Of a DNA stretch of 64,000 bases, positions 3,050-23,970 are shown in pieces. Origin of the DNA: Xenophilus azovorans DSM 13620. GTDB lineage: Bacteria > Pseudomonadota > Gammaproteobacteria > Burkholderiales > Burkholderiaceae_C. The translations under genes and the position numbers were made by a program. The DNA is taken from contig NZ_JQKD01000034.1 in assembly GCF_000745855.1 (NCBI RefSeq), forward strand, positions 1 through 64,000, given 5' to 3'. Under the pieces are notes generated by a model that did not search any database, was not told the DNA's origin, and saw only the letters and a list, made by a program, of their open reading frames with translations. Each line of letters opens with the position of its first letter. Position 1 is the first letter of the stretch.

Positions 3050-3053
<4 letters not shown>
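2172..3053 (-). CDS. cas7: Type I-C Cascade backbone subunit Cas7c (Csd2)
   Basis: 293 aa. N-terminus [47 protein letters not shown] is a Csd2 hallmark. ATGA overlap with cas8c. Confidence 0.9.
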
Positions 3054-5562
<2,509 letters not shown>

Positions 5563-5584
5563 TCAGATGTTCGTTTACAAAATA

Positions 5585-7882
5585 TTACCAGCTCAAGAGA
5601 TCCGGGCGGATGAGCGTTGGGTTATCCCAACTCAGGCCGAAATGCGGGTCGTACAAACCCTCGTGCGCCAGCACCATGAACTGATCGCCCCATTTCTCTG
5701 GCGTCACCGAAATTACGGCCCCCGCCTTGTAGAGGGCATCGAAGCCCTGACGTGGCAACTGCACCAGATAGGGCTGAAGCTTGCGTGCCAGACCTGCACA
5801 ACCTTGGGCATACGTCAGGGCATCGATGACCTTTTTCGCGTCATCGTCATACGGCACGATGACTGGCATCTGCACGCTGTCGATCATGCGGAACTTGGCG
5901 GCCAGAGTTTCCATGGGCAGGCTGTCGGGGCGGCTGTCCCTGAGCTGACCCATGAGGTTGGGCTCGTCGAGCCGCTCGCTGCCCTTTTGCCAGTACAGCA
6001 GCGAGAAGTAGCGTTCAATGGCCTCGGGCAAGAGCGGATCGTCTTCGCATTGGCGCAAGACTTCGCGGGCAGCCTGGGCATATTGTTTGAGTTCAGGAGG
6101 CGGTGCCCAGTCCTCGTTCTCCGTTGCGAACACCAGAACGTCGCTGGCGTTGAGGGCACGCCTTCCCTCGCGATTGCAGCGGCCGGCGGCCTGGGCAATC
6201 GAGTCCAAGCCTGCTTCGGCGCGCAGCACCGTGGGGAAATCGACGTCGACGCCAGCCTCAATGAGGCTGGTGCTCACCAGCCGGCAGGGTAGTCCCTCCT
6301 TGAGCATCTGCCGCACCTCGGCCAGCACCTTGCTGCGATGCTTGGCGCACATCAGCGTAGTCAGATGTCGGGCGCCCGGCAGATCGGCCATGGCCTGATA
6401 AACGGCGCGCGCGTGGCGGCGGTTGTTGACGATGCACAGCACCTGTTCGCGCGAGCGCATGTGCTCGGCCAGTGCTTCGTCGCTCAGGGTGCCGATATGC
6501 CGCACGCGTACCCGTTCCAGTTGCCTGAACAACTGCGTCGGCTCGTGCGTCAGCTCGCGTACGTCCGTCAAGCCGCCCTCGAACGCCGGCGCCTCCAGTG
6601 CCGGCTGCGTGGCCGTGCACAGCACCACGCTGCTGCGGTAGTTGCGTGCGAGTTCGTCGATCGCCGCCACGCAGGGGCGCAGCAGCTTCAGCGGCATGGT
6701 CTGTGCCTCGTCGAGCACGACCACGCTGCCCGCGATGTTGTGCAGCTTGCGGCACTGCGAGGGCTTGGCCGCGAACAGGCTTTCGAAGAACTGCACGGCG
6801 GTGGTGACGACGATGGGCGCGTCCCAGTTCTCCATGGCCAGCTTCAGCTTCTCCAGGGACTGGTAGCGCTCGGGGTCGTCGCGCGGCGGGTCGGCCTGCA
6901 CGAAGGCGCTGTGGTGTTCGAGCACGGCCGCCTCGCCCAGCGGCCCCAGGGCCTGGCGGAACACCGCGGCGTTCTGCTCGACGATGCTGGTGAACGGGAT
7001 CACGAAGATCACGCGCCGCAGCCCGTGCGCGATGGCGTGGTCCAGCGCGAAGGCCAGCGAGGCGAGGGTCTTGCCGCCGCCGGTCGGTACGGTCAGCGAG
7101 AACAGGCCGGGATCGCGTGCGGCCTGCTGGCGGACGTGGCGCAGGATGTCGCTGCGCAATCGGTTGACCTCGCTGTCGGCCTTGAATTGGCCGAGATGGC
7201 TGTCGAGCTGGCTGCGTAGCGCCTCCAGCGGCGGCGCGGGTGGGCCCGAGTTGCGGTGATCGGGCTCATTCTCCGCTTGGCGGTAGAAGCGCTCGGTATC
7301 GATGAAGTCCGCATCGACCAGGCACGAGAACAGCATGCGCGTGAGAAATGCCAGTTGGAAGGGCTGGCGATCCTTGGCTTGCTGGCGAGTCTCGCCATAG
7401 AACTTGAAGCCCGATGGCAGGCCGAGTTTGTCGGGCAGGGCGATGTCCCGCTCCCAGACGGGATCGAGCACGGGCAGGTCCGCGCTGCGAAGGCGATCCG
7501 CCAGTGCGGTGCGTTCGCCTTCGCCCTGGCCGTTGGCCAGTCCGGCATGGTGTCCTGCGATGCCATAGGCCAGCAGCTGTCCGGCCAACCCGAAGCGCTG
7601 CTGCGCGATGATGCGTGCGCCATGGGTCGAATGATCGACGCGCAAGGGGCTGCCGCGCAGCCGTTCCTGGAAGGGCAGGGTGTACTTGCCCAGGTCGTGA
7701 AGCCAGCCCTGCACGGTAGCCAGCATCTGGGCATCGAAGACGCTGGCGAATGCGCCGGCAGCCGCGCCGACGTTCAGGAGGTGCGCCGGCAAGGGTTGCC
7801 AGAACCGCTCGTCCTCGCCTGGCAGTGAGTGCGCGAAGTACGTGGTTGCCGATGTGCCGCGGCTGCAGCCTTTTTCGTCCAT
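5585..7882 (-). CDS. cas3: CRISPR-associated helicase/nuclease Cas3 (HD nuclease + SF2 helicase)
   Basis: 765 aa. N-terminal HD region (HSLPGEDERFWQPLPAHLLNV..LHDLGKYT), DEAQ helicase motif and PTGGGKT P-loop. First gene of the cas operon. Confidence 0.9.
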   Translation of the reverse strand: MDEKGCSRGTSATTYFAHSLPGEDERFWQPLPAHLLNVGAAAGAFASVFDAQMLATVQGWLHDLGKYTLPFQERLRGSPLRVDHSTHGARIIAQQRFGLAGQLLAYGIAGHHAGLANGQGEGERTALADRLRSADLPVLDPVWERDIALPDKLGLPSGFKFYGETRQQAKDRQPFQLAFLTRMLFSCLVDADFIDTERFYRQAENEPDHRNSGPPAPPLEALRSQLDSHLGQFKADSEVNRLRSDILRHVRQQAARDPGLFSLTVPTGGGKTLASLAFALDHAIAHGLRRVIFVIPFTSIVEQNAAVFRQALGPLGEAAVLEHHSAFVQADPPRDDPERYQSLEKLKLAMENWDAPIVVTTAVQFFESLFAAKPSQCRKLHNIAGSVVVLDEAQTMPLKLLRPCVAAIDELARNYRSSVVLCTATQPALEAPAFEGGLTDVRELTHEPTQLFRQLERVRVRHIGTLSDEALAEHMRSREQVLCIVNNRRHARAVYQAMADLPGARHLTTLMCAKHRSKVLAEVRQMLKEGLPCRLVSTSLIEAGVDVDFPTVLRAEAGLDSIAQAAGRCNREGRRALNASDVLVFATENEDWAPPPELKQYAQAAREVLRQCEDDPLLPEAIERYFSLLYWQKGSERLDEPNLMGQLRDSRPDSLPMETLAAKFRMIDSVQMPVIVPYDDDAKKVIDALTYAQGCAGLARKLQPYLVQLPRQGFDALYKAGAVISVTPEKWGDQFMVLAHEGLYDPHFGLSWDNPTLIRPDLLSW

Positions 7883-8528: not shown

Positions 8529-9683
8529 ATGACCGCCTCCACCGCCTCTCGATCCGCCGCCGTGCCGGTCGCCGTGCTCGGCGCCGGCCGCATGGGCCTG
8601 GCCATCGCGCGGATGCTGCGCCATGCCGGCGGCTACACGCTGCGCGTGGCCGACCGCGACCCGGCGCGGCTGGCGCTGGCCGCGGCGCTGGGCTGCGAGA
8701 CGCTGGCGCTGGACGGCCACGACGCCGCCGCGCTGGCGCGCGCGGTGCGCGGCTGCCACGCCGCGCTCAACGCGCTGCCCTTCCACTGCGCGGTAGACGC
8801 GGCCACCGCCTGCCGGCAGGCCGGCGTGCACTACTTCGACCTGACCGAGGACGTGCCGAGCACCCGCGCCATCCAGGCGCTGGCCGAGGGCGCGCGCACG
8901 GTGCTGATGCCGCAGTGCGGGCTGGCGCCGGGCTTCGTCGGCGTGCTGGGCCATGCGCTGGCGGCGCGCTTCGACCAGCCTGCCGCGCTGCACCTGCGCG
9001 TGGGCGCGCTGCCGCGCCGGCCCGACAACGCGCTGCGCTACAAGCTCACCTGGAGCACCGAGGGGCTGATCAACGAGTACTGCAACCCCTGCGAGGCCAT
9101 CGCCGGCGGCCGGCGCGTCGAGTTGCCGGCGCTCGAAGGACTGGAGCGGCTGGTGCTGGACGGCGTGGCCTACGAGGCCTTCAACACCTCCGGCGGGCTC
9201 GGCACGCTGACGCACACGCTGCCGGCCTCGGTACGGCGAGCCGACTACAAGTCGATCCGCTACCCGGGGCACGGCGCCATCATGAAGCTGCTGCTGAACG
9301 ACCTGCGCCTGCGCGAGCGGCGCGACCTGCTGCGCGAGATCTTCGAGTCGGCCCTGGGCACCACGCTGGACGACGTGGTGCTGATCGCGGCGCGCGCCAG
9401 CGGCCTGCGCGGCGGCCGGCCGGCGCGCGAACGCTTCTCGGTGCGCATCCTGGGCGCCGAACTCGACGGACACGCGCTGTCGGCCATCCAGCGCTGCACG
9501 GCCGCCGGCATCTGCGCGGCGCTCGACCTGGTGGTGCAGGGCGTGCTGCCGCAGGCCGGTTTCGTCGGCCCGCAGCAGGTGCCGCTGGCGGCGCTGCTGG
9601 CCAACCGCTTCGGTGCCGTCTACGCCGAACGTGCGCCGCAGGCGCCCGGTGCCGGCCGTGCCGAGAAGGAGTTCGCACCATGA
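8529..9683 (+). CDS. Saccharopine dehydrogenase family oxidoreductase (candidate L-lysine 6-dehydrogenase)
   Basis: 384 aa. N-terminal Rossmann fold (VAVLGAGRMGLAIARML). Family resemblance plus ATGA coupling to an ALDH7-type P6C dehydrogenase and a divergent Lrp regulator. Confidence 0.65.
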   Translation: MTASTASRSAAVPVAVLGAGRMGLAIARMLRHAGGYTLRVADRDPARLALAAALGCETLALDGHDAAALARAVRGCHAALNALPFHCAVDAATACRQAGVHYFDLTEDVPSTRAIQALAEGARTVLMPQCGLAPGFVGVLGHALAARFDQPAALHLRVGALPRRPDNALRYKLTWSTEGLINEYCNPCEAIAGGRRVELPALEGLERLVLDGVAYEAFNTSGGLGTLTHTLPASVRRADYKSIRYPGHGAIMKLLLNDLRLRERRDLLREIFESALGTTLDDVVLIAARASGLRGGRPARERFSVRILGAELDGHALSAIQRCTAAGICAALDLVVQGVLPQAGFVGPQQVPLAALLANRFGAVYAERAPQAPGAGRAEKEFAP

Positions 9684-11224
9684 CCGCTGCCCCTCATCCC
9701 GAATTGCAGGCCCTGTTCGATGCGCTGGGCCTGACGCTGCCGGCTGCGGCCGCCGATGCGGCGACGGCCTGGTCCGTGCGTTCGCCGGTCGATGGCGCCC
9801 TGCTGGCCTGGCTGCCGCGCACCGGCGAGCGGGCGCAGCAGGCCTCGGCCGAAGCCGCCGCGGCTGCCCAGTCGCGCTGGGCGGCTCTGCCGGCGCCCGC
9901 GCGCGGCCAGGCGGTGCGCGCCTTCGGAGAGCAACTGCGCCGGCACCGCGACACGCTGGGCCGGCTGGTGACGCTGGAGACCGGCAAGATCACCGCCGAG
10001 GGCCGCGGCGAGGTGCAGGAGATGATCGACATCTGCGACTTTGCGCTGGGCCTGTCGCGCCAGTTGCATGGCCGCGTCATCGCTTCCGAGCGCGCCGAGC
10101 ACAAGATGCTGGAGACTTGGCACCCCTTCGGCGTCTGCGGCGTGATCTCGGCCTTCAACTTCCCGGCGGCGGTGTGGTCCTGGAATGCGGCGCTGGCGCT
10201 GGTGTGCGGCAATGCCGTGGTGTGGAAGCCCTCCGAGAAGGCGCCGCTGTCGGCGCTGGCGGCGCACGGGCTGCTGCTGCGCGCACTGGGCGAGGCCGTG
10301 CCGGGGCATGAGGCGGTCGCGCAGCTCTGGCTGGGCGGGCGCGAGGCCGGCGAGGCGCTGGTGGCGCACCCGGCGGTGCGGCTGGTCAGCGCCACCGGCT
10401 CCACCGGCATGGGGCGTGCGGTGGGCGTCGCCTGTGCGCAGCACTTCAAGCGCAGCATCCTCGAGCTGGGCGGCAACAACGCCGCCATCGTGCGCCCCAG
10501 CGCCGACCTGGCACTGGCTGCGCGCGCCATCGTGTTCGCCGCCGCTGGCACCGCCGGCCAGCGCTGCACCACGCTGCGGCGCGCCTTCGTGCATCCCGAC
10601 GTGTACGAGCCGCTGCGCGAGCGGCTGCAGCGCGCCTACACCTCGCTGCGCGTCGGCCATCCGGCGGCCGGGGGCACGCTGGTCGGCCCGCTGATCGACG
10701 GCGCCGCCTTCGAGGCCATGCAGCGCACGCTGGCCGAGTGCCGCGATGTGCACGGCAACCGCGTGTGGGGCGGCGAGCGCGTCGCTGTGCCCGGCTGCGA
10801 GGGCGGCTTCTACGTCCGCCCCGCGCTGGTGGAGACCGAGGTGCAGCATGCCGCCATGCTGCGCGAGACCTTCGCGCCCATCCTGTACCTGCAGCGCGTC
10901 GCCGCCCTGGAGGAGGCGATCGCGCTGAACAACGCCGCCGCGCACGGCCTGTCCTCGTGCATCTTCACCGAGTCGCTGCGCGAGGCCGAGCAGTTCATGT
11001 CGCAGGCCGGCAGCGACTGCGGCATCGCCAACGTCAACATCGGCACCAGCGGTGCCGAGATCGGCGGCGCCTTCGGCGGCGAGAAGGACACCGGCGGCGG
11101 CCGCGAGTCGGGCTCCGACGCCTGGAAGGGCTACATGCGCCGCGCCACCAACACCATCAACTACGGCCGCGCGCTGCCGCTGGCGCAGGGGGTGCGCTTC
11201 GAGGTGGACGGCGCCGGCGGGTAG
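9680..11224 (+). CDS. Aldehyde dehydrogenase, ALDH7/AmaB type (piperideine-6-carboxylate / alpha-aminoadipic semialdehyde dehydrogenase)
   Basis: 514 aa. ALDH motifs (FELGGNNA..., catalytic Cys in GQRCTT). C-terminus EIGGAFGGEKDTGGGRESGSDAWKGYMRR is typical of the ALDH7 family. Confidence 0.85.
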   Translation: MTAAPHPELQALFDALGLTLPAAAADAATAWSVRSPVDGALLAWLPRTGERAQQASAEAAAAAQSRWAALPAPARGQAVRAFGEQLRRHRDTLGRLVTLETGKITAEGRGEVQEMIDICDFALGLSRQLHGRVIASERAEHKMLETWHPFGVCGVISAFNFPAAVWSWNAALALVCGNAVVWKPSEKAPLSALAAHGLLLRALGEAVPGHEAVAQLWLGGREAGEALVAHPAVRLVSATGSTGMGRAVGVACAQHFKRSILELGGNNAAIVRPSADLALAARAIVFAAAGTAGQRCTTLRRAFVHPDVYEPLRERLQRAYTSLRVGHPAAGGTLVGPLIDGAAFEAMQRTLAECRDVHGNRVWGGERVAVPGCEGGFYVRPALVETEVQHAAMLRETFAPILYLQRVAALEEAIALNNAAAHGLSSCIFTESLREAEQFMSQAGSDCGIANVNIGTSGAEIGGAFGGEKDTGGGRESGSDAWKGYMRRATNTINYGRALPLAQGVRFEVDGAGG

Positions 11225-11251: not shown

Positions 11252-14200
11252 CTACTTCTTCTTGCGGCCCGCCGCGGGTGCCGCCGCCGGCGTCTCGCCC
11301 AGTGCATCCATGCGCGCCTCCACCTGGGCGATCTCCGGATGGGTGCTGTCCATGCCCAGCCGCGCTTCCACGGCGCGCACCAGCGGCATGATGAGCTGCC
11401 GGTAGGTGACCGAGAGCGAGAGCAGCGCGTCGACCATCCGCTGGTCCTGCGCGGAGCTGCTGTGGGTGTTCAGCGCCTGCGTGCTCTCGCGCAGGGCGTG
11501 CAGCGCGGCCGCGCTGGCGTCCAGGCTGGCGCGCAACTGCTGCTGCGCGCTGGTGTCGCCGGCCTGCAGTTGCCGTGCCAGCGTGCCCAGGTCGGCCAGG
11601 GGCTGTTCCAGGCGGGCGAGCAGGGCACGCTGCTCGGGGCCCGCAGCGGCCAGTTGCTCGGCGATGCGTGACAGCGGCGCCAGCGTGTCCACGCTGCGCG
11701 CGATGTCCAGCAGGCCGCGCGTCACGCGCACGCTGGGGTCGTCCTCGGCGCCGCCCAGCTTGCGCTGGCGCTGGTAGTCGCCGGTGATCTGCTGCCAGCG
11801 CGCCTGTTCCTCCGGCGTGGCCAGGCCGATCAGGTGGGCCAGTTGCAGCAGGTTCTCCTCGGCGCCGGTGGTCAGGGTCTGCGCCTCGCCGCGGTAGTGG
11901 TCGCGCAGCAGGGCGTCGATCTCGTCGTCGCGCATCAGCGACGTGACCTGCGGCGCCAGCCGAGCCATGTTCCGGTAGCTGCCCTGCAGGCGGAAGGGCG
12001 GCTTCTCGCGGTAGCGGTCGTCCTGCGCGGCCGACTCGATGTAGGCCAGGTTCACCTTCAGCAGCACGTCGCGCACCTTGAACAGGCGCTGCAGCAGGCC
12101 CTTGAGTTCGTCCAGTTCGACGGCGCTGTACGGGTGCGCGAAGCGGGTGGCGTCGATCGCCTCGCCCTGCGCCAGGCGCACGAGCAGGTGCACGTCGCCG
12201 GGCTCGCGCGCGGCCAGCGGCTGCGTCACCGGGTGCGAAGTCAGGCTGTTCTCGATGTACGAGAGCGCGAACACCGCCTCGCGGCCCGAGAGCACGTCGC
12301 CCAGGTTGTAGATGTCGGCGCGGTTGGCCAGCATGTCGGGGATGCGGAACACGTCGCCCGACTCGGTGTACGGGTTGCCCGACATGACGATGGCGAAGCG
12401 CTTGCCGCGCATGTCCCAGGTGCGCGGCTGGCCCTGCCACACGCCCTCGATGCGGCGGGTGCCGTCGGCCAGCGCGATGAACTTCTGCAGGAACTCCGGG
12501 TGCGTGTGCTGGATGTCGTCCAGGTACAGCATCACGTTGCTGCCCATCGCCAGGCCGAGGTTGAGCTTCTCCAGCTCCTGCCGCGCGGCGCTGTTGGGCG
12601 CGGTGGCCGGGTCGATGCTGGTGACGCCGTGCCCCAGCGCCGGGCAGTTGATGCGCACGAAGACCAGGCCCAGCCGGTTGGCCACGTATTCCATCAGCGT
12701 GGTCTTGCCGTAGCCGGGCGGCGAGATGAGCAGCAGCATGCCCATGCGGTCGGTGCGCGCGCTGTCGCCGGCCGCGCCGAGCTGCTTGGCCAGGTTGTCG
12801 CCGATCAGCGGCAGGTACACCTCGTCGATCAGCCGGTTGCGCACGAAGGTGGCCAGCGGCCTGGCCTGGAACTGCTCCAGGTGCAGGCGCCGCTTTTCCT
12901 CCTCCAGCAAGGCGTGCCGCAGCGCCTGCAACTGGACGAAGCCGCGGACCGCGTGGCGGCGGTGGTGGCGCACGCGGCGGCGGAAGTCGTTCAGGTTGAA
13001 GGGCAGGGATGCCTCGCGGATGCGCGGGTGTTCGCTGCGCAGGCCGGTCACGGTGGCGTCGAGCGCGGCGTTGATGCGGCGGCGCGCGCCCTGGAACGTC
13101 ATGGCCGTGGCGGCGTCGTCGATCCAGGCCAGCGCCGTCGCAGCGCCGTCGCCGGCTGCCTGCGACTCGGCGAGGGCCCGCAGCCAGCCGCGTGCCATGC
13201 GCCACCGCTCCAGCGGCTCGGCCGCCTGCAGGTCGCGCTGGAGCGCGCCGGCCAGGCCGCCGCGGTCCAGCGCGCGCTGCAAGGCCTGCGCCAGGTCTTC
13301 GCCGGCGCTGCTGATCACCCAGTGCGGCGTGGCGGTGGCGAGATCGGCGGCGGCATCGGCCTGCGCCAGCTCGCGCACCAGGTAGGCCGCGGCCTCTTCG
13401 GCCAGAGTCTGCAGCAGCGCGTCGTGCGCCGGGTCCTCCTGGTCGTCCGCGGCCGGCGCAATGCCCAGGGCCTGCGCCAGCTCGGGCAGCCATTCCTGCC
13501 GCAGTACCCGCTGGGCATCGAGGAAGTGGCGCAGGCTCTGCGCCGTCTCGCGCTCCAGGGTGTCGCGCGGCGCCGTCCGGCCGAACAGTTGCGTGATGTG
13601 CTGCGCGCTGCGGGCGCGGCGCGCCAGCGACTGCCGGCTTTCCTCGCGCAGCTCGAGGTGCCAGAACAGCTTGGCCAGCGCGCGTTCGGCGCAGCCGTAC
13701 AGCAGGAGGCCGGCGGCGTCCTGGATGGGCGCGAGCACGCGCACGATGGCGAGCGCGTCGTCGTCGTGGATGCCGCGCTGGTAGCCCTCCTGGTAGCGGC
13801 TGGCCGCGAAGCGGCGCAGCGAGTCGAGCAGGGCGGCCGGCGGCGGCGCGTCGGTGGCGGCGGCGTTCCTGGCGTGTTCGGCCAACTGGACCAGCAGCTC
13901 GGGCCAGCCGGGCTCGGCCTCGCCGCGCTGCAGCGCGTCCAGCCATTCGGCGGCGAGGTATTCGGCCCGCGCGAGCTGCGGCGTCTCCGACACCAGGGCC
14001 TGCGGCCAGAAGGGGCGCAGCGCCTCCAGCCGTGCATCGATGGCGGGCGCGAGGTAGTCGGTGCCCGTGATCTGCCAGGCCAGGCCGTCGCCGTGGCCCA
14101 CCAGCGTGAGGTCCAGCGGCTGCCTGTTGACGGTGAAGGTGTGGGCGCCCAGCCTGATGCCGCCTTCGGCGCCCGAGGCCAGTTCGCGCTGGTCGCGCAC

Positions 14201-16816
14201 CGCGCGCACGGCCTGGTCGCGCGCCGTCTTCAGCCGGGTGTCGATGTCGTCGGCGGCCACCGCCGCGCCGAGCCTGCGCAGTTCGGCCACCTGCTCGCGC
14301 AGCTTGGCCAGCATCGGGTCGGATGCGAAGTAGCTGTGCACCTGCGCCAGCTCGCCGAAGCCCGCCACGCGGCGCGGCACGCCGTCGAGGATGCGGCCCG
14401 CCGCATCGGCCAGTGCCTTGGCGCGGCGCTGCTGCCCCTCGACCAGGCCCTGGCGCCGGGCCGACAAGGCCTCGTACACGGTCTCGCGCTGCGTGGCGAT
14501 GTCGGCGAGGAATTCTTCCTGCTCGGCGAAGCGGCCCTCGATGTCTTCCAACTGGGCCAGCAGCCGCGTGAGCGCCTCGTCGCACTTCTGCGGCGTGTCC
14601 GACAGCTCCAGCGCGTTCTCCACCGCCTGGCCGAAGAGCTTGAACTGGGCGCCGAACTCGGCGCGCTGCTCGGCCGCACCCAGGCTGCGCCGGCGCGCGC
14701 GTGCATCGGCGCGCAGGCGGTTGATGTCGGCGTACAGCAGCGCGATGCGGTCGAGGATCGCGGTGCGCTGCACCGCATCGCCGCCGGGCAGGTTGCCCAG
14801 TTGCTCGCTCAGCAGGTCCAGTCCGGCCGCCTCGGCGTCGAGCGCGTCCAGTTGTTCCGAGAGCTGCGTGGCCGTCGCCGCCTGCGGCAGCGCGGCGGCC
14901 ACGGCGGCCAGCGCCTTCTGCTGCCCGTCGAAAGCCTTCTCGTCCGCGAGGAACTGCATGGCCCGCTCGCCCACGCGCTGCTGCTCGGCGGCCAGTTGCC
15001 CGGCCATGGCCTCGATGCGCGGCACGTCGGCATAGCGCAGCTCGCGCAGCAGATGCAGTTCGCCCTGGCGCTGGCGCAGGCGGTCCAGCGCACGCACGAA
15101 GTCCTGCGGGCCGCGCCACATCTGGCTGGCGATGTCGGTCATCAGCTCGCGTTGCTGGCCCTCGGCCTTAAGCAGGGCGCGCGCCGTGTCCTGGCGGATG
15201 CTCTCCACCTTCTCGAACTCGCCCAGCGTGGCCTGTGCGGCCTGCTCGATGGCCTGCAGGTCGGCCGCGGCGCCCTGCGCCTCGTGGGCGTCGAGCCAGA
15301 AGTAGGCGTCGCGCGCGCGCTGGCACTGGCGGATCAGGTCCTCGTAGGCGGTGCGCGTGGGGGCCTGCTCGCGCACGGCGCGCGCGATGCCCAGCAGGTC
15401 CGAGATGCCGCGCACCAGGTCGGCATTGCCCACGCGCGCGAAGAAGCCCGTGCCCGCCGGCTGGCGGCTGGCGTATTCCTCGGTGGCGAAGGGGGTGCGC
15501 CACAACTGCATGAGGTGCACGCGCGTGGCCTCGCCGCGTGCGGCCTGGAAGACCAGCAGGCGGCCGTCGGGGAAGCGGCTGTAGCCGTCGGCCAGGATGG
15601 GCGTGGCCAGCGACTTCTCGATCAGGTTGTAGGTGAAGAAGGCGTAGCAGCCGGCATCGAGCGTGGCCGGGCTGCCCTGCGGCGGCGGCACGGTGCCATA
15701 GAAGATGTAGGCCACGTCCTCGCCGTTGGGCGAGCGCAGCATGCGCGTGAAGCGCAACTGCTCGGTCAGCTCGGGCGGCAGGTCGAAGCGCTTGTGCTCG
15801 CCCGACTGCAGGTAATAGCCGCCGGGGAAGATGATGCCGTGGTCTTCGGGCAACTGCATGCACGAGGCGCCGATGGCGTCGATGCGCAGCACCTGCTGCG
15901 TGCGCTGGTTGTAGACCAGGTAGCGCGCGGCCTGCTCGCGGTAGGGCCGCACCTGCAGCAGGATCAGCAGGCCGAGCCGGGCGTAGGCGATCTCGGCGTC
16001 GCCCAGCGCCTGGTTGGCGTCCTCGACGGGTTCCTCGTAGATGCCCAGGCCGGTCTCGGTGTTGTTCTCGACCTTGACGGTCAGCGAGCCGCCGGTGGTC
16101 TCCACGAAGATCGTGTCGAGCACGTTGATGTGCGGGTGCGCGCCGCCCACGTGGTGCTCGCGCGTGAGCGGGGTCCACGCGAAGTCGTGGCTGGGCGGCG
16201 GTGCCAGGTCGCGCTCGCCGCGGTTGTCCACGTACTGGAGCGTGCCGTCGTTGCCGCGCGCCCAGCGGAACACGCGGATGTCCTGCGCCTGCTGGCCGAT
16301 CTGGAAGGCCGCCAGCAGGTAGTCGGGCGTGGGCCGCAGCAGCTGCAGCGTGGCCTGCTTGTAGTAGGTGTAGAGCTCGTTGAAGTCGGCGACGAAGCGC
16401 GGGTCGGCGAGGAAGCTGCCTTCCAGCGGCACCTGCACCAGTTCGTCGCTCTCGGGGTTGCCGGCGGCGTCGGCGTCGTGGTGCGCCAGCGCGTAGATCG
16501 CGAACACGTCCTCCACGCGCGTCTCGCGCTTGAGGCCCATGAACACGTTGTAGCCGAGCAGCAGGCGGTTGCCGCCGATGTAGACCAGGTCGCGCGCCAC
16601 GCAGTTGTGCTCGGTGCGCGCGCGGGTGCGCAGCAGCAGTTGCTGCTCGCGCTGGCCGAACTGCGCGATGCGCTCGGCGTTGAGCGCCTGCGCCTTCGCC
16701 AGGAGCTGGTCGCCCTGCGCCTGCAGGCGCTTCTTGAGCAGTTCGTAGCTGCTGCTCTCGGCGACGCTGGCGTCGACGGCGGCGCGGTCGGCCGCTTCGT
16801 TGGGGGGGCTGGACAT
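11252..16816 (-). CDS. Giant (1854 aa) coiled-coil protein with a single MoxR-like AAA+ ATPase domain; function unknown
   Basis: One continuous ORF with normal amino-acid diversity. Walker A LLLISPPGYGKTTLMEYV, Walker B VMLYLDDIQ, sensor/Arg region IVMSGNPYTESGDVFRIPDMLANRADIYNL. About 1250-aa N-terminal region (globular then long Ala/Glu/Arg/Leu-rich helical). Start codon 9 nt after the flotillin stop. Confidence 0.75.
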   Translation of the reverse strand: MSSPPNEAADRAAVDASVAESSSYELLKKRLQAQGDQLLAKAQALNAERIAQFGQREQQLLLRTRARTEHNCVARDLVYIGGNRLLLGYNVFMGLKRETRVEDVFAIYALAHHDADAAGNPESDELVQVPLEGSFLADPRFVADFNELYTYYKQATLQLLRPTPDYLLAAFQIGQQAQDIRVFRWARGNDGTLQYVDNRGERDLAPPPSHDFAWTPLTREHHVGGAHPHINVLDTIFVETTGGSLTVKVENNTETGLGIYEEPVEDANQALGDAEIAYARLGLLILLQVRPYREQAARYLVYNQRTQQVLRIDAIGASCMQLPEDHGIIFPGGYYLQSGEHKRFDLPPELTEQLRFTRMLRSPNGEDVAYIFYGTVPPPQGSPATLDAGCYAFFTYNLIEKSLATPILADGYSRFPDGRLLVFQAARGEATRVHLMQLWRTPFATEEYASRQPAGTGFFARVGNADLVRGISDLLGIARAVREQAPTRTAYEDLIRQCQRARDAYFWLDAHEAQGAAADLQAIEQAAQATLGEFEKVESIRQDTARALLKAEGQQRELMTDIASQMWRGPQDFVRALDRLRQRQGELHLLRELRYADVPRIEAMAGQLAAEQQRVGERAMQFLADEKAFDGQQKALAAVAAALPQAATATQLSEQLDALDAEAAGLDLLSEQLGNLPGGDAVQRTAILDRIALLYADINRLRADARARRRSLGAAEQRAEFGAQFKLFGQAVENALELSDTPQKCDEALTRLLAQLEDIEGRFAEQEEFLADIATQRETVYEALSARRQGLVEGQQRRAKALADAAGRILDGVPRRVAGFGELAQVHSYFASDPMLAKLREQVAELRRLGAAVAADDIDTRLKTARDQAVRAVRDQRELASGAEGGIRLGAHTFTVNRQPLDLTLVGHGDGLAWQITGTDYLAPAIDARLEALRPFWPQALVSETPQLARAEYLAAEWLDALQRGEAEPGWPELLVQLAEHARNAAATDAPPPAALLDSLRRFAASRYQEGYQRGIHDDDALAIVRVLAPIQDAAGLLLYGCAERALAKLFWHLELREESRQSLARRARSAQHITQLFGRTAPRDTLERETAQSLRHFLDAQRVLRQEWLPELAQALGIAPAADDQEDPAHDALLQTLAEEAAAYLVRELAQADAAADLATATPHWVISSAGEDLAQALQRALDRGGLAGALQRDLQAAEPLERWRMARGWLRALAESQAAGDGAATALAWIDDAATAMTFQGARRRINAALDATVTGLRSEHPRIREASLPFNLNDFRRRVRHHRRHAVRGFVQLQALRHALLEEEKRRLHLEQFQARPLATFVRNRLIDEVYLPLIGDNLAKQLGAAGDSARTDRMGMLLLISPPGYGKTTLMEYVANRLGLVFVRINCPALGHGVTSIDPATAPNSAARQELEKLNLGLAMGSNVMLYLDDIQHTHPEFLQKFIALADGTRRIEGVWQGQPRTWDMRGKRFAIVMSGNPYTESGDVFRIPDMLANRADIYNLGDVLSGREAVFALSYIENSLTSHPVTQPLAAREPGDVHLLVRLAQGEAIDATRFAHPYSAVELDELKGLLQRLFKVRDVLLKVNLAYIESAAQDDRYREKPPFRLQGSYRNMARLAPQVTSLMRDDEIDALLRDHYRGEAQTLTTGAEENLLQLAHLIGLATPEEQARWQQITGDYQRQRKLGGAEDDPSVRVTRGLLDIARSVDTLAPLSRIAEQLAAAGPEQRALLARLEQPLADLGTLARQLQAGDTSAQQQLRASLDASAAALHALRESTQALNTHSSSAQDQRMVDALLSLSVTYRQLIMPLVRAVEARLGMDSTHPEIAQVEARMDALGETPAAAPAAGRKKK

Positions 16817-16825
16817 GCGGCGGCG

Positions 16826-18964
16826 TCAGCCGGGCTTCCTGAAGCTCTGCACCAGTTGCTGCAGCGCGTGCCTCTGGCTGTCCGTGCCTTCGCTCATCAC
16901 CTTACCGATCAGGGCCGACACGCTGAGGTTCTGCAATTCACCCGCCGACTGCCCCGCTGCGCCGAGGATCTGCTTGACGTCTTCCACCACGTCGCGCTCG
17001 CCCGCCAGTTGCTCCTTGAACGCCACCTGCAGCGTATCGCTCTTGTTCACGGCCGCGTCGATGCCCTTGCCCACCGACAGCGCGCGCACGAAGCTGTCGA
17101 AGTAGTCTCCCTGGCCGCCCACGATGTCGATGCGGGCGTTCTTCAGCGCCACGCCCAGCACCTCCGCCTGCTCCCGGGCGATGGCCTGCTGCGCGTCGAT
17201 CTGCTTGAGTGTCTCGAGGTGCGCGCGCTCCAGGCGCATGCGGTATTCCTCGTGCTCGCGCGTCTCGGGGCTCATGGCCTTCATGGCTTCGAACTTCTCC
17301 TTCAGGCCGCGCGCCTCGGCGCTGAACTTCACGTCGATGTTGTGCGCTTCGGCATCGCCCTGCTTGGCCAGCGCCTCGGCGTCCACGGTGCGCACCAGCG
17401 CATCGGCCTGGCCGATCTTTTCCTTGCCGGCGGCCTCGGCCTCCATGCGGGCGCGGATGCCCACGGCGTCGGCCTGCGCCTGCACCTCGGTCACCTGCGC
17501 CTCGGCGCGGCCCACCTTCTCCTTGCCGGTGGCCTCGGCTTCCATGCTGGCCAGCTTGGCGCTGGCCCCGGCCACCTGCACCTTGGCCTCGGCCAGGCCG
17601 GGCGCGGCCGTCAGGGCCTCGATGCCCTCGGCCTCGCGCTTCTTGGCCTCGGCCTCGCGCTCGGCCACCTTCAGGCGCGCATCGGCCAGCACCAGGTCTT
17701 CGGCCGCCTTGTGGCGCGCCTTGCGCTCCTGCGCCTCGGCCGCCTTCACCTCGAGGATCACCTTCTCCTCGGCAGCCGCCTCGGCGCCGATCACCACCGC
17801 CTTGCGCGTGCGGTCGGCCTCTGCCACCTCGCGCACTTCCTTGATCGCCTCTTCCTGCTCGGCCACCGTGCGCTCGACCACGATGCGCTCGCGGATGACG
17901 TCGGCGATCGCCTTCTTCTGCACCTCGACGGCCTTGTCCTTCTCGATCTGCTGCAGCGTCACTTCCTTCTCGCGCGCCACCACTTCCAGGTCCCGGGCGC
18001 GGGTCACGCGCTCCTGCTCGATCACGACCGCGCGCTTGCGGTTGTTCTCGGCCACCTCCTTCTCGCGCAGCACGTTCTCGTTCTGCACCGAGATCTGCTG
18101 CTCGGCCTGCAGCCGCGCCATCTCTGCGCGGGTGTGCTCCTCGGCCTGGATCTTGGAGGTCTCGGCCTCCTCGCGGGCCTTCACGCTGGCCACCTCGCGC
18201 GCCTGGCGCGCCGTGGCGTCGGCCTGCTGGCGCTCCAGCTCGAGCAGGGCCTCCTGCGTTTCCACGTTCTTCTTCTTGATCTGCATTTCCTCGTTGCGGC
18301 GCAGCTCGTTGGTGGTCACGTGCTCCACGGCGGTGAGCTGCGTGATCTTCTTGATGCCCTGCGCATCGAGGATGTTGTTGGCGTCCAGGCGCGCCAGCGG
18401 CGTCTGCTCCAGGTAGTCGATGGCCGAACTCTCGAGCACGTAGCCCGACAGGTCGTTGCCGATCTGGCTCATGATCTTGTCGCGGAAGGCGTCGCGCGCG
18501 TCGTACAGGTCGACGAAATCCATGGCCTTGCCCACCGTCTTGAGCGCTTCGGAGAACTTGGCCGAGAACAGGTCTTCCAGCGTGGACTGGTTGGAGGCCC
18601 GGTCGCAGCCGATGGACTGCGCCACGTGCAGCACGTCCTCGGCGGTCTGGTTCACACGCACGAAGAACTTCACCTTGATGTCGGCGCGGATGTTGTCGGC
18701 GCAGATCAGGCCCTGGTCGCCCGAGCGGTCGATCTCGATGGTCTTGATCGAGATGTCCATCAACTCGGCCTTGTTGATGATCGGCAACACCAGCCCGCCG
18801 GTGAAGGTGACCTTGGGGTCGCCGCGGAAGGGGTTGATGATCAGCGCGTGACCCTGCTCCACCTTGTGATAGAAGCGGGAGAACATCGCGAAGATGCCGA
18901 AGATCACGATCACCGCGATGGCGGCGAGGACCAGGAAGGTGATGATCGAGGGAGACAGGGACAT
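16826..18964 (-). CDS. Flotillin-like SPFH/band-7 protein (YqiK-like) with extended EA-rich coiled-coil
   Basis: N-terminal TM helix then PHB/SPFH domain (HALIINPFRGDPKVTFTGGLVLPIINKAELMDISIKTIEI). Long Glu/Ala/Lys/Arg-rich repeats. ATG at 18964 preferred over the track's TTG at 18982. Confidence 0.85.
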   Translation of the reverse strand: MSLSPSIITFLVLAAIAVIVIFGIFAMFSRFYHKVEQGHALIINPFRGDPKVTFTGGLVLPIINKAELMDISIKTIEIDRSGDQGLICADNIRADIKVKFFVRVNQTAEDVLHVAQSIGCDRASNQSTLEDLFSAKFSEALKTVGKAMDFVDLYDARDAFRDKIMSQIGNDLSGYVLESSAIDYLEQTPLARLDANNILDAQGIKKITQLTAVEHVTTNELRRNEEMQIKKKNVETQEALLELERQQADATARQAREVASVKAREEAETSKIQAEEHTRAEMARLQAEQQISVQNENVLREKEVAENNRKRAVVIEQERVTRARDLEVVAREKEVTLQQIEKDKAVEVQKKAIADVIRERIVVERTVAEQEEAIKEVREVAEADRTRKAVVIGAEAAAEEKVILEVKAAEAQERKARHKAAEDLVLADARLKVAEREAEAKKREAEGIEALTAAPGLAEAKVQVAGASAKLASMEAEATGKEKVGRAEAQVTEVQAQADAVGIRARMEAEAAGKEKIGQADALVRTVDAEALAKQGDAEAHNIDVKFSAEARGLKEKFEAMKAMSPETREHEEYRMRLERAHLETLKQIDAQQAIAREQAEVLGVALKNARIDIVGGQGDYFDSFVRALSVGKGIDAAVNKSDTLQVAFKEQLAGERDVVEDVKQILGAAGQSAGELQNLSVSALIGKVMSEGTDSQRHALQQLVQSFRKPG

Positions 18965-19102
18965 GCTGAGGCTCGCTTGCAAGGAATTTTTAGGGCCGGC
19001 GGGCGGGATGAAGGGCAGGAGCGAGGCGCTCTCAGGGCGATCGTGCGGCGGATGGCGGCACGGGTCGGCACCGGCCGGGCGGCCGGGTCGTCGTTCGGTG
19101 CA

Positions 19103-19747
19103 TCACGGTTCTCCCTCCATGGGTTGCACGAGATAGCGGCGCCGGGCCGCGTCGTAGTCCACGATCAGCGCCCGGCTGCCGCGGCGCAGCGGGTTGGGGC
19201 TGGGCGCCCACACCTGGATGAGGATGCCCGCGCCGCGCTGCGCCACTTCGGCATGGCCCTCTCTCTCGTCGACCACGCCGGTGGTGATTGTGCAGGGCTG
19301 GCCGATCAGGTCGCTGTTCTGGCGGGCGTATTGCGTCACGAAGGCGCCGCGCAAGGGGCGCACCAGCCGCGCCGCGATCACGATGGACAGCGCGAAGCAG
19401 GCCGCGAGCACCACCAGCCCCGCCACGACCTGCAGCGCCAGCGTGGGCACCCAGGCCAGCAGCCAGATGCCGGCCAGCGTGCTGAGCGTCCAGCCGATCA
19501 CCACCAGCAGCGTGACCACGATGGAGAAGGGCACGCCGGACAGGCCGAAGGCCACCACGTAGCCGGCGATGGCGCCCAGGTCGTCCGCGCTCGCGTCGGC
19601 GTGCTGGGCGATGTCCAGGTCGATGCTGCTCTCGCCGAAGTCGACCAGGCCCACGATGGCGGCGATCCAGTAGACCAGCATCACCGCCAGCAGCAGGCTG
19701 TAGATGAATGTGGGAAAGCCGAAGACGACGGAGAGGAATTCGCGCAT
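19103..19747 (-). CDS. NfeD/YqiJ-like inner-membrane protein (membrane anchor + C-terminal OB-fold)
   Basis: 214 aa. Multiple TM helices, C-terminal soluble beta-rich domain (GQPCTITTGVVDEREGHAEVAQRGAGILIQVW). Upstream partner of flotillin, as in yqiJK/yuaF-floT pairs. Confidence 0.65.
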   Translation of the reverse strand: MREFLSVVFGFPTFIYSLLLAVMLVYWIAAIVGLVDFGESSIDLDIAQHADASADDLGAIAGYVVAFGLSGVPFSIVVTLLVVIGWTLSTLAGIWLLAWVPTLALQVVAGLVVLAACFALSIVIAARLVRPLRGAFVTQYARQNSDLIGQPCTITTGVVDEREGHAEVAQRGAGILIQVWAPSPNPLRRGSRALIVDYDAARRRYLVQPMEGEP

Positions 19748-20242: not shown

Positions 20243-20968
20243 TCAGGCGGCGGGCGCGCCGCCGTCGCCTGTGCCTGCGGCGCGGCGCGCCCGCAGCCGC
20301 GCCATCACGGCCTCGGCGCGGCTCTTGTCGCTGTCGCCGATGCCGGCCGCGGCCAGTTCGTTCTCCAGTGCCTTGTGGCCGAACTCCTGGTCCAGTTCCT
20401 CGGCGGCGGCCATGCGGTCGGCCAGGTCCTCGTGGCGCTTCTTGATGCGGTCCAGCGATTCGCGCGCGCTCGTGAGCCTGGAGCCCGTGCTGCCGATGCT
20501 GTCCGAGATGCTCTGCGTGGCGCGGTACACGCTCTCGGTCGTCTTGGCGATGCCGATCTCGCGCTCGTGCTCGCGCACGCGCGCCTCGGCGCTGCGGATC
20601 AGGTCCTTGAGGCGGCCCACCTGCACGGCGAAGCCGGCGTGCGCCTGCGTCTGCACCTGCATCTCGCCCTCCAGCGCCGCCACCCGCTCGGCCACCTTCA
20701 GCGCCAGGCCCTCCTCGGTCTTGTCCAGGGCCTGCAGGGCCATGTCCTCGTGGCGGCGGATCTCGCCCTTGATGCGCTCGATGTCGCGCGCGGTCTGCAT
20801 CTCCTTGGCCATCACGGCCGTGAGTTCGGTCTTGGCCTCGGCGATGCTGGCCTTGGCGTCCACGATCTCCTGTTCGTAGATGCGCGTGGCGTTGTTGTCG
20901 ACCACGCTCTGGCCCAGTTCGCGGGCGCTGCCGCGTAGCAGGGTGACGAGTTTCTTGATGACGGTCAT
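20243..20968 (-). CDS. PspA/IM30 family protein (YjfJ-like; bacterial ESCRT-III superfamily)
   Basis: 241-aa all-helical protein. N-terminus MTVIKKLVTLLRGSARELGQSVVDNNATRIYEQEIVDAKASIAEAK matches the PspA/IM30 amphipathic start and coiled-coil. Confidence 0.85.
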   Translation of the reverse strand: MTVIKKLVTLLRGSARELGQSVVDNNATRIYEQEIVDAKASIAEAKTELTAVMAKEMQTARDIERIKGEIRRHEDMALQALDKTEEGLALKVAERVAALEGEMQVQTQAHAGFAVQVGRLKDLIRSAEARVREHEREIGIAKTTESVYRATQSISDSIGSTGSRLTSARESLDRIKKRHEDLADRMAAAEELDQEFGHKALENELAAAGIGDSDKSRAEAVMARLRARRAAGTGDGGAPAA

Positions 20969-21001: not shown

Positions 21002-21418
21002 TCAGCGCAGGTAGTCGGCCAGCGCATCGAGGGCGTCGAGGGCGTTGTCGCTGAGCACGGCGACTTCGTGGGCCACGTCCTCGGCGCGCGCGCTGCGGGC
21101 CAGGGCGCCCGTGAGCACGTAGCGTTGGCCCACGCGGCCGAAGGACGACAGCGGCACCGACGGGTTCAGGTCCAGCAGGGCCTCGTGCAGCTCGGCGCGG
21201 CGGTCCGCGCGCACGTCCTCGTCGGTCCAGAGGTAGCACAGGCAGATCAACTGCGTGTCCGAGCAGGTCACGAAGATCGGCAGCTCGTCGCGCCCCTCGA
21301 TGCAGACCTGGATCACCGGCACCTCGCCGGCGATGGGCTGCAACTGCACACCGACGCCGCCCATCACGGCCGACGTCAGCGTGTCCAGGTTGCTGAGCTG
21401 ATGGAGCAGAACGGTCAT
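21002..21418 (-). CDS. YjfI-like DUF2170 family protein
   Basis: 138 aa, acidic, directly upstream of the PspA-family gene (yjfI-yjfJ-like pairing). AGGAGG RBS 6 nt before the ATG. Confidence 0.55.
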   Translation of the reverse strand: MTVLLHQLSNLDTLTSAVMGGVGVQLQPIAGEVPVIQVCIEGRDELPIFVTCSDTQLICLCYLWTDEDVRADRRAELHEALLDLNPSVPLSSFGRVGQRYVLTGALARSARAEDVAHEVAVLSDNALDALDALADYLR

Positions 21419-21495
21419 GGTGCCCTCCTAATCGTGATGGCCGTGGATCGGATGCCTCGCCGGAGCCCGACGGTGAATGCAGTATGCGGTCGCGC

Positions 21496-21534
21496 GACAT
21501 ATCATGTCAACGGATTTTTGACATGAAATGTCAA
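21496..21534. promoter_or_regulatory. Array of four alternating TGTCA/TGACA half-sites (GACAT-atc-ATGTCAA-N7-TTGACAT-gaa-ATGTCAA) in the divergent promoter region
   Basis: Read directly from the sequence. A perfect inverted repeat ATGTCAA-N7-TTGACAT plus two flanking half-sites, 80-115 bp upstream of the yjfI-like start and about 65 bp upstream of the ahcY leader. Confidence 0.45.
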
Positions 21535-21584
21535 GGATCCTCCGCCGGACGGCCCCGTGCGGCGGCGGTGCGCGGCGCCCTTTC

Positions 21585-21590
21585 TATAAT
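21585..21590 (+). promoter_or_regulatory. Candidate -10 hexamer TATAAT for the SAH riboswitch/ahcY transcript
   Basis: Perfect TATAAT about 8-12 nt upstream of the riboswitch 5' end. No good -35 seen. Confidence 0.35.
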
Positions 21591-21596
21591 TCGCCC

Positions 21597-21685
21597 ACTT
21601 CCGAGGAGCGTTGCAGCGTCCCCCGCCCGGAGCGGAGCGGTCGCGAGGCTCGGACCGATTCTTTGCAACGACGCTCGCCCACGGC
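21597..21685 (+). ncRNA. SAH riboswitch (S-adenosylhomocysteine-sensing leader of ahcY)
   Basis: CCGAGGAGCGTTGCAGCG...GGCTCGG...TTGCAACGACGCTCGCC matches the conserved SAH-element core (GAGGAGCG/CGCUC pairing, UGCAACG repeat). Lies immediately 5' of ahcY. Confidence 0.7.
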
Positions 21686-21743
21686 TCTGTGCGGTGAGTT
21701 TCCCCAGAACGTGGTCGTCTTCAACCTGCCGTATGGAGTATTG

Positions 21744-23201
<1,458 letters not shown>

Positions 23202-23214
23202 GCGAGGGGCTGCG

Positions 23215-23970
23215 ATGCGCGCCGACCAGTTGCTGGTGGAGCGCGGCCAGGCCGCCTCGCGTGCGCAGGCGCAGCGGCTGATCGCGGCCGGCGTGCAGTG
23301 GCGGCTGGCGGGCGGCGCGTGGAGGCGCGTCGCCAAGAACGGCGAGGAGCTGCCGCCCGCGGCAGAGCTGCAGCCGGAGGACGACGCCGAGACGCGCTAT
23401 GTCTCGCGTGGCGGCCTGAAGCTGGAGGCCGCGCTGCGCCTGGCTGGCGTGGATGCCGCCGGCCTGGTCTGCCTCGACGTGGGCCAGTCCACCGGCGGCT
23501 TCACCGATTGCCTGCTGCGCCACGGCGCGGCGCGCGTGGTCGGCGTGGATGTGGGGCATGGCCAGTTGCACGAACGGCTGCGTGCCGACCCGCGCGTGAC
23601 GGCGCTGGAGGGCGTGAACGCCCGTGCATTGACCGCCGCCGGCCTGGGCGGCGCGCTGCCGCCGGGCGGCTTCGGCCTCGTGGTCGGCGACCTGTCCTTC
23701 ATCTCGCTGGCGCTGGTGCTGCCGGCGCTGGCGCCGCTGCTGGCCGCCGGCGGCTGCATGCTGCTGCTGGCCAAGCCGCAGTTCGAGCTGCAGCCGGGCC
23801 GCATCGGCAAGGGTGGCATCGTGCGCGACGCGGCCGCTTACGACGAAGTACGCGACAAGCTGCGCGGTGCCGCCGACGCGCTGGGCCTGGCCTGGGCCGG
23901 CTGGCACGACAGCCCGATCCTGGGCGGCGACGGCAACCGCGAGTTCCTGATGGTGTTGAGGAAAACATGA
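23215..23970 (+). CDS. tlyA: TlyA family rRNA (cytidine-2'-O)-methyltransferase
   Basis: 251 aa. S4-like N-terminus ([25 protein letters not shown]) then FtsJ-type methyltransferase ([19 protein letters not shown]). Confidence 0.8.

Follow-up and report, generated by a model that had tools for sequence, protein, structure and literature searches.

A giant DUF3686/DUF7902/AAA+ protein encoded beside a flotillin-like gene in Xenophilus azovorans: predicted domain anatomy, gene linkage and possible function

It is an open question how bacteria dismantle or regulate flotillin assemblies and the ESCRT-III-like polymers of PspA, and a locus of Xenophilus azovorans DSM 13620 encodes a member of a protein family that could bear on it: what does a protein of 1854 amino acids (aa), with an ATPase module of the AAA+ type, do directly downstream of a flotillin-like gene? 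The stretch analysed (the window) comprises the first 64,000 nucleotides (nt) of contig NZ_JQKD01000034.1; the coordinates of the gene, of its domains and of its neighbours are collected in Table 1. A reading made earlier from the letters alone, here called the original prediction, had sketched a beta-rich N-terminal region, a coiled coil of about 800 aa, a single MoxR-like AAA+ module and a long helical tail. The answer towards which we lean, with modest confidence, is that the protein is an ATP-driven remodeller of flotillin scaffolds in an envelope-stress module.

The gene is real and uninterrupted, because an NCBI protein of X. azovorans matches its product at 100% identity and over 4300 of the candidates scored were significant relatives. 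When residues 1–1200 were compared with all of 1.84 billion cluster representatives, 1219 proteins scored E < 1e-3 and 376 (clusters at 50% identity) scored E < 1e-30; members that are complete usually have 1500–2036 aa and are colinear over residues ~20–1100, and colinearity persists in relatives with as little as 25% identity. In GTDB, with each species represented by one genome, a pattern scan confirmed relatives in at least 589 species, and the family occurs in Pseudomonadota, Myxococcota, Actinomycetota, Deinococcota, Bacteroidota and Acidobacteriota. With so many clusters and species, the architecture, which had been called unusual, is in fact common.

A domain search, which the original prediction had proposed as a check, was run on the protein against Pfam and placed PF12458 (DUF3686) at residues 38–506 (E 1.3e-179). 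Two AlphaFold2 models were built from an alignment of 77 sequences (25–92% identity), one for residues 1–960 (predicted local distance difference test, pLDDT, 87.6; predicted template modelling score, pTM, 0.64) and one for residues 941–1854 (pLDDT 86.9; pTM 0.71), and secondary structure was assigned by DSSP on these models. After a long N-terminal helix, residues 59–440 are predicted to be all-beta, with ~27 strands that would make roughly 6–7 blades by strand count; residues 60–440 are rich in beta structure and in aromatic side chains (FWY 10.4%). When the N-terminal model was compared with the PDB, Foldseek returned essentially only beta-propellers (E ~1e-5; template modelling (TM) score ~0.3), including DUF4221, paraoxonase, EED, the clathrin terminal domain, Elp1, nucleoporins and dynein intermediate chains, so that the domain is best modelled as a propeller without a close solved relative. 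The propeller-like N-terminal domain that had been suspected is therefore borne out by both Foldseek and DUF3686.

Behind the propeller, the model shows an arm of long helices (up to 49–58 residues) that contains PF25472 (DUF7902) and is followed by a small beta subdomain. Conservation was followed in an alignment of 74 diverse full-length representatives (25–57% identity), in which the deletion fraction of residues 446–945 (arm plus small beta subdomain; 14042–15481, minus strand) averages 0.003 and only one hot spot of insertions occurs, a pattern which suggests that the fixed length of the arm is functionally constrained. A Fourier heptad test, which is crude and not diagnostic, gave a weak and patchy 3.5-residue signal at residues 553–610 and 721–800 and none at 945–1320. 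Residues 450–1250 had been taken for one low-complexity coiled coil; instead, they make up a conserved, length-invariant helical region of several domains. The protein had also been said to lack a transmembrane helix, and a 19-residue Kyte–Doolittle scan of its whole length agreed, revealing no transmembrane-like segment (maximum mean 1.68, in a stretch with Asp and Gln).

The C-terminal half opens with a compact domain (residues 946–1240) of many short helices (~10–23 residues), mostly modelled with pLDDT > 90 and carrying two variable insertion sites in the alignment. It includes a nearly invariant loop, EGYxxG[IV]HDxDA, which could be an interface or a metal site and matches no motif known to us. 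Beyond a small beta-sheet and a linker helix lies the AAA+ core, the best-conserved part of the protein, with predicted strands at residues 1361–1364 (beta1), 1428–1433 (beta3, Walker B), 1474–1480 (beta4, sensor 1) and 1501–1504 (beta5). Walker A reads S1365-PPGYGKT-T1372, with K1371, and Walker B reads MLYLDDIQH (1429–1437), with D1433 and D1434; MSGNPYT (1478–1484) provides the sensor-1 residue N1481 and PDMLANRAD (1493–1501) the putative Arg finger R1499. In 73 of the 74 aligned members, SPPGYGKT[TS], hhhhDDIQH, [MAL]xGNPYT, PDMLxNRAD and LQGSYRxM are identical or near-identical, while one member departs from the rest, with scrambled residues where Walker A, sensor 1 and the Arg finger should be. 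We read the Asp–Asp of Walker B (not Asp–Glu) and the Ser that begins Walker A as peculiarities conserved across the family, not as degeneration.

All the motifs quoted in the original prediction are present (GNPYT...PDMLANRAD spans 1480–1501), and neither degenerate ATPase motifs nor a frameshift was found. The protein has one P-loop only, and the AAA+ module that had been placed near residue 1300 is indeed single, although its alpha/beta core spans ~1328–1550 and the whole module 1328–1690. Of the supposed helical tail of 400 residues, ~240 belong to the end of the conserved core and the lid; the true tail measures ~160 residues, is absent or different in most relatives after ~1700, and ends in an RKKK sequence that is not conserved. 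The protein is thus real and its domain outline was largely right, if approximate, the "800-aa coiled coil" and the "400-aa tail" being oversimplified. We also weighed the idea of a second, degenerate AAA+ domain and discarded it, since the chain has no further P-loop and residues 946–1240 are all-helical.

This anatomy bears on the name under which the protein is filed. Pfam describes PF12458 as "ATPase involved in DNA repair", and if this were its function, the protein would be an SMC/SbcC-like coiled-coil ATPase working on DNA, an idea to which we give hardly any credence. In SMC, Rad50 and SbcC, an ABC-type head is split by a coiled coil and the partners are DNA-related, whereas here Walker A and Walker B lie 60 residues apart in one AAA+ fold and the conserved neighbours are all membrane proteins. 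There are no SMC/Rad50 matches in Pfam or NCBIfam and no DNA-binding or nuclease domain, and we found no publication that supports the name. What speaks for it is nothing but the inherited Pfam description and the NCBI product names, together with a faint PADLOC match to LmuB (SMC-like) in the helical region (E 0.0047). The label appears to have been inherited from the Pfam description, and neither domain content nor context supports "DNA repair ATPase", widespread though this product name is.

The kind of AAA+ module is less readily assigned. When the whole protein was compared with Pfam, AAA-clan matches at ~1358–1487 were weak. For the module, AAA_5 ("dynein-related subfamily") scored 27.7 bits against a cut-off of 22, over profile positions 2–126 of 139; AAA_3 (MoxR proper) was not matched (E 0.17, P-loop only); and PF00004 aligned over 35 residues only. 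Compared with the sequences in the PDB, the protein and the 77-sequence family profile gave matches at the level of the P-loop only (Rix7, NVL, RuvB, p97) and no solved relative. For the AAA+ module, the best structural matches in Foldseek were CbbQ2 and NorQ (target-normalised TM scores 0.62 and 0.59), RuvB having the marginally best E-value at a TM score of 0.34. The established signature of AAA+ clade 7 is a helix-2 insert beta-hairpin combined with a pre-sensor-1 beta-hairpin. A pre-sensor-1 hairpin is predicted here at residues 1455–1468, between alpha3 and beta4; between beta2 and alpha2 (1391–1408), DSSP on the AlphaFold2 model gives a loop and a short helix, and no hairpin. Judged by the model, the module is MoxR/AAA_5-like and not canonical MoxR.

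The nearest AAA+ folds are accordingly those of the CbbQ/NorQ (CGN) subgroup of MoxR proteins, namely AfCbbQ2 (PDB 6l1q) and NorQ (PDB 9qh4), which form stand-alone rings of ~260-residue subunits with a VWA partner (CbbO or NorD) and have Asp–Glu in Walker B and a helix-2 hairpin, whereas here the chain has 1854 aa with propeller and arm, no VWA gene nearby, Asp–Asp and no hairpin evident in the model. MoxR-type ATPases usually act via a VWA partner. The earlier label "MoxR-like" holds in that the fold resembles AAA_5 and CbbQ/NorQ, and fails in the strict sense, since AAA_3 is unmatched, the helix-2 hairpin is not evident and the VWA partner is missing. The protein might still do what CbbQ, NorQ and RavA do, as a maturation chaperone that inserts a cofactor into, or activates, a membrane enzyme in flotillin microdomains, and the two best structural matches and the above-threshold AAA_5 score agree with this. 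We nevertheless consider it improbable, given a chain about six times the size of a MoxR protein, the failure to match AAA_3, and the lack of any conserved VWA/MIDAS partner or candidate client enzyme nearby.

In the window, the ATPase gene belongs to a cluster of six minus-strand genes that starts with a YjfI-like gene. A sigma-70-like site lies upstream of this first gene (consensus match only), and a consensus scan detected no terminator-like site on the minus strand inside the cluster. We took the identities of the flotillin-like and YqiJ-like products from their orthologues and from the literature, because Pfam gave nothing significant for either ORF (open reading frame); PDB sequence searches with the two proteins gave no match. 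For the flotillin-like gene, alignment with the Variovorax orthologue makes the ATG at 18964 the likely start, not the TTG at 18982. Between the PspA and YqiJ-like genes lies a small ORF of 124 aa for which Pfam gave no significant match; by eye, its product could consist of two tandem ribbon-helix-helix units, which would make it a candidate regulator. This ORF is conserved mostly in loci of the Burkholderiales type and in a few gammaproteobacteria, and in the mechanical list of ORFs it is concealed within a spurious ORF of 567 aa.

Neighbourhoods were searched with the window proteins around 80 of the at least 589 relatives and in four plasmid loci, and linkage was counted in those 70 loci whose upstream sequence extends for 3.5 kb or more. 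In 68 of these 70 loci, the ATPase gene is immediately preceded by a flotillin gene on the same strand; a YqiJ-like gene comes before flotillin in 65, and PspA and YjfI are present in 36. On plasmids, the triad of YqiJ, flotillin and ATPase occurs in Pseudomonas fluorescens (pQBR103), Deinococcus, Hymenobacter and Streptomyces, at ~42–50% identity over ~1700 residues. The linkage of the ATPase is therefore near-obligate to flotillin and YqiJ and facultative to PspA and YjfI. The two exceptions are mobile-element insertions between flotillin and ATPase: a Lampropedia locus (L058, 3826–7216) has acquired NYN-domain and HepT-like toxin genes there, and a zetaproteobacterial one (L082, 5221–7252) two PDDEXK_2/PD-(D/E)XK transposase-like genes.

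These counts also bear on the possibility that PspA is the real substrate. The ATPase would then be a Vps4 counterpart that uses propeller and arm to disassemble or recycle PspA polymers, flotillin serving as a membrane platform only. PspA and its CesT/Tir-like partner do share the cluster, here and in the 36 loci mentioned; according to a 2025 review, bacteria apparently lack a Vps4-like ATPase and the control of PspA polymerisation is open (PMC7619361); and ESCRT-like analogies are suggested in PMC11237479. Against this, PspA is missing from the surrounding 6 kb in 34 of the 70 loci, whereas flotillin sits next to the ATPase gene in essentially all of them, and no MIT-like domain was found in the ATPase, so we judge an exclusively PspA-directed machine to be unlikely.

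The association itself has been described before. By comparative genomics, Ravi, Aravind et al. (mSystems 2024; PMC11237479) report a "beta-propeller + coiled-coil + AAA-ATPase" protein in CesT/Tir-PspA-YqiJ/YuaF-flotillin operons, with Dokdonia donghaensis ANH61663.1 as an example neighbourhood, as well as abbreviated flotillin-YqiJ-ATPase operons across bacteria and archaea. The domain order, the Pfam families, and the partners and their order (YjfI/CesT-like, PspA, YqiJ-like, flotillin, ATPase) are the same as in the window, and nothing essential differs; the window locus has the additional 124-aa ORF. The DUF3686 propeller, the DUF7902 helical region, the single C-terminal AAA+ domain and the upstream flotillin and YqiJ genes of the published architecture were all found here. 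That paper gives no structure or experiment and, in the text read here, no AAA+ clade assignment. Family, architecture and operon context being already in Pfam and in that paper, the finding itself is not new; new are the domain boundaries, the AAA+ affinity, the Asp–Asp and SPPGYGKT variants, the indel-free arm, the linkage statistics, a zinc-ribbon gene and the non-conserved junction of 9 nt between flotillin and ATPase.

At this junction, 9 nt (cgccgccgc) separate the flotillin stop codon (TGA, 16828–16826) from the ATPase ATG at 16816. No Shine-Dalgarno sequence was found 5–12 nt before this ATG; the nearest purine-rich sequence, AGGAAG, ends 18 nt upstream, which is too far for canonical spacing. 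Translational coupling, which the original prediction had deduced from the short junction, is plausible in this genome as far as the sequence goes; it is not a feature of the system, because among relatives the distance from flotillin stop to ATPase start can be anything between −23 and +945 nt, and the close ones have another gene in between. This gene encodes a 181-aa Zn_ribbon_TFIIB protein (PF13453) and lies between flotillin and ATPase in Variovorax, Aquabacterium, Ideonella and similar genomes, while in Cellvibrionaceae and relatives (some gammaproteobacteria) it directly follows the ATPase gene. It is present at one related locus (L006, 6650–7195, plus strand) and at ~20 others, and is an accessory gene of the system. 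The window differs from its close Burkholderiales relatives in lacking this gene, and the short junction in Xenophilus results from its absence.

In the remodelling model that we favour, the ATPase would be a cytoplasmic subunit of a conserved three-gene membrane module, formed by the YqiJ-like transmembrane protein, flotillin and the DUF3686-AAA+ protein, and extended upstream here by the CesT/Tir-like YjfI, PspA and the small ORF. Its single MoxR/CbbQ/dynein-type AAA+ domain would oligomerise into a ring, most likely a hexamer, from which each subunit would project a rigid, length-conserved helical arm with the beta-propeller at its tip. We infer that propeller and arm dock onto the cytoplasmic flotillin (SPFH) assembly or its clients, including PspA where it is present, and that ATP binding and hydrolysis in the ring may be relayed through linker helix and arm to drive assembly, disassembly or another remodelling of the scaffold during envelope stress. 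The absence of a transmembrane helix from the ATPase and the N-terminal transmembrane anchor of the flotillin-like protein support such an arrangement. In favour of the model speak also the linkage to flotillin and YqiJ, the earlier description of this type of operon, the conserved ATPase motifs, the N-terminal propeller, the constant length of the arm, and a single promoter-like site for the six genes with no terminator-like site among them. The action of Vps4 on ESCRT-III and the pairing of FtsH with HflK/C offer analogies, in function only, an AAA+ protein being genetically coupled here to PspA (ESCRT-III-like) and flotillin (SPFH). Vps4 and FtsH belong to the classical AAA clade, whereas the ATPase described here is of another clade, lacks the MIT domain, the protease domain and the transmembrane anchor, and gives no full match to PF00004.

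Several observations weigh against the remodelling model. The contact between flotillin and ATPase is deduced from gene adjacency only; the AlphaFold2 predictions cover the protein as two separate halves and do not give the arrangement of arm and ring; and we found no experimental study of any DUF3686-family member in the literature. The flotillin-like ORF of the window has no Pfam Band_7 match and only a weak one to NCBIfam FloT (E 1e-3), whereas the pQBR103 orthologue does match Band_7 (E 9e-11). No VWA/MIDAS domain occurs in the operon genes here or in annotated neighbours in four other phyla. Finally, since Walker B has Asp–Asp instead of Asp–Glu and Walker A starts with Ser, hydrolysis could be slow or switch-like rather than motor-like.

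A bolder version of the model, which we hold to be possible yet rather doubtful, is a homo-oligomeric AAA_5 ring of the dynein/midasin kind whose fixed-length arms and propellers grip flotillin cages and/or PspA polymers and mechanically assemble or dismantle them. In midasin/Rea1 and the dynein heavy chain, AAA_5 modules are indeed joined to a long stalk or tail of helices that carries a distal binding domain. These two proteins have no detectable sequence homology to the ATPase outside the AAA core, and concatenate six AAA modules per chain as compared to one here; with one module per chain, a homo-oligomer would be required. If true, the family would supply the first bacterial ATPase dedicated to remodelling SPFH or ESCRT-III assemblies and would be related, with its single module, to the dynein/midasin design.

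Copies on megaplasmids, the selfish elements inserted at two loci and Type I-C cas genes 3.4 kb away in the window could also point to conflict, with flotillin, YqiJ and ATPase sensing phage or plasmid attack at the membrane and setting off a protective or abortive response. PADLOC gave no significant match, however (E >= 0.001, confined to the P-loop or helical region); tblastn against 50,697 phage records revealed no phage homologue, PHROGs returning only P-loop and coiled-coil noise; and the operon has no effector domain (nuclease, protease, NADase etc.). Housekeeping genes border the cluster, those of lysine catabolism on one side and those of the methyl cycle on the other, and we regard a defence function as very unlikely.

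The flotillin-scaffold remodelling that we propose makes this family a concrete, testable candidate: a giant AAA+ ATPase whose gene is almost obligately beside flotillin and which is present in at least several hundred species. The analysis provides targets at the level of residues (K1371, D1433/D1434, N1481, R1499 and R1615), and the DUF3686-AAA+ family is an attractive uncharacterised target.

Table 1. Features of the ATPase gene, its product and its gene cluster in the window (res, residues of the 1854-aa protein; AF2, AlphaFold2).
Feature	Position	Strand	Basis or remark
Whole gene, DUF3686/DUF7902/AAA+ protein, 1854 aa	11252..16816	-	ATG start; NCBI name "DNA repair ATPase"
N-terminal long helix, res 7–53	16658..16798	-	AF2 model
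Predicted beta-propeller domain, res 59–440, core of PF12458 (DUF3686)	15497..16642	-	Pfam, AF2, Foldseek
Long-helix arm, res 464–880	14177..15427	-	Pfam, AF2 model, alignment
PF25472 (DUF7902), res 627–711, inside arm	14684-14938	-	Pfam, E 3.8e-21
Small beta subdomain, res 886–924	14045..14161	-	AF2 model
Compact short-helix domain, res 946–1240, ~300 residues	13097..13981	-	AF2 model, alignment
Nearly invariant loop EGYxxG[IV]HDxDA, res 1010–1021	13754-13789	-	74-member alignment
Small beta-sheet (res 1245–1274) and 36-residue linker helix (res 1275–1310) into AAA+	12887..13084	-	AF2 model
AAA+ alpha/beta core, res 1328–1550	12167..12835	-	Pfam, AF2, Foldseek, alignment
AAA+ helical lid, res 1565–1690; conserved LQGSYRxM, R1615 putative sensor 2	11747..12124	-	AF2, alignment
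Variable helical C-terminal tail, res 1700–1854	11255..11719	-	Low pLDDT; >50% deleted in relatives
Flotillin/SPFH-like gene, N-terminal transmembrane anchor, directly upstream of ATPase	16826..18982	-	Orthologues
YqiJ/YuaF-like (DUF1449-type) multi-transmembrane protein	19103..19747	-	Orthologues; PMC11237479
Small conserved ORF, 124 aa	19797..20171	-	Present in 19/70 related loci
PspA/IM30 (YjfJ-type) gene	20243..20968	-	PF04012, E 7e-32
YjfI-like DUF2170 gene, first of six	21002..21418	-	Pfam; CesT/Tir-like chaperone per PMC11237479
Sigma-70-like promoter match TTGACA-18-CATACT	21481..21510	-	Sole such match on strand, consensus scan only
Antisense ORF, 2672 aa	11834..19852	+	Overlaps ATPase and flotillin genes

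The window contains numerous spurious long ORFs because of its high GC content (0.64–0.75). One of them, the plus-strand ORF of 2672 aa in Table 1, was rejected as a gene: its translation is monotonous (Leu/Arg/Gly/Ala/Val/His), the strong family matches are on the 1854-aa minus-strand product, and we consider it an antisense artefact of ~70–73% GC DNA. It could mislead gene callers.

The Type I-C cas genes occupy 3050–7882 on the minus strand; they include Cas8c/Csd1 (3050–5098; PF09709, E 1e-196) and, at 5585–7882, Cas3, which has an HD and a helicase domain, and Tandem Repeats Finder detected no repeat array in the window. Next to them, a lysine-catabolism pair (8529–11224, plus strand) comprises a saccharopine dehydrogenase-like gene (8529–9683) and a gene for L-piperidine-6-carboxylate dehydrogenase, whose real start is near 9767 and whose product scores 723 bits with NF050084, just below the cut-off of 730 bits. 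The pair is convergent with the ATPase gene, with 27 nt between the stop codons and no terminator-like hairpin detected there.

On the other side of the cluster, an S-adenosylhomocysteine (SAH) riboswitch (21597–21683, plus strand; Rfam RF01057, 52.3 bits against a gathering score of 37) lies upstream of ahcY (adenosylhomocysteinase), and since it overlaps the listed ORF 21528..23201, the latter is over-extended at its 5′ end. After ahcY follows metF (methylenetetrahydrofolate reductase, at ~23298–24812), and this unit of SAH riboswitch, ahcY and metF is divergent from the cluster.

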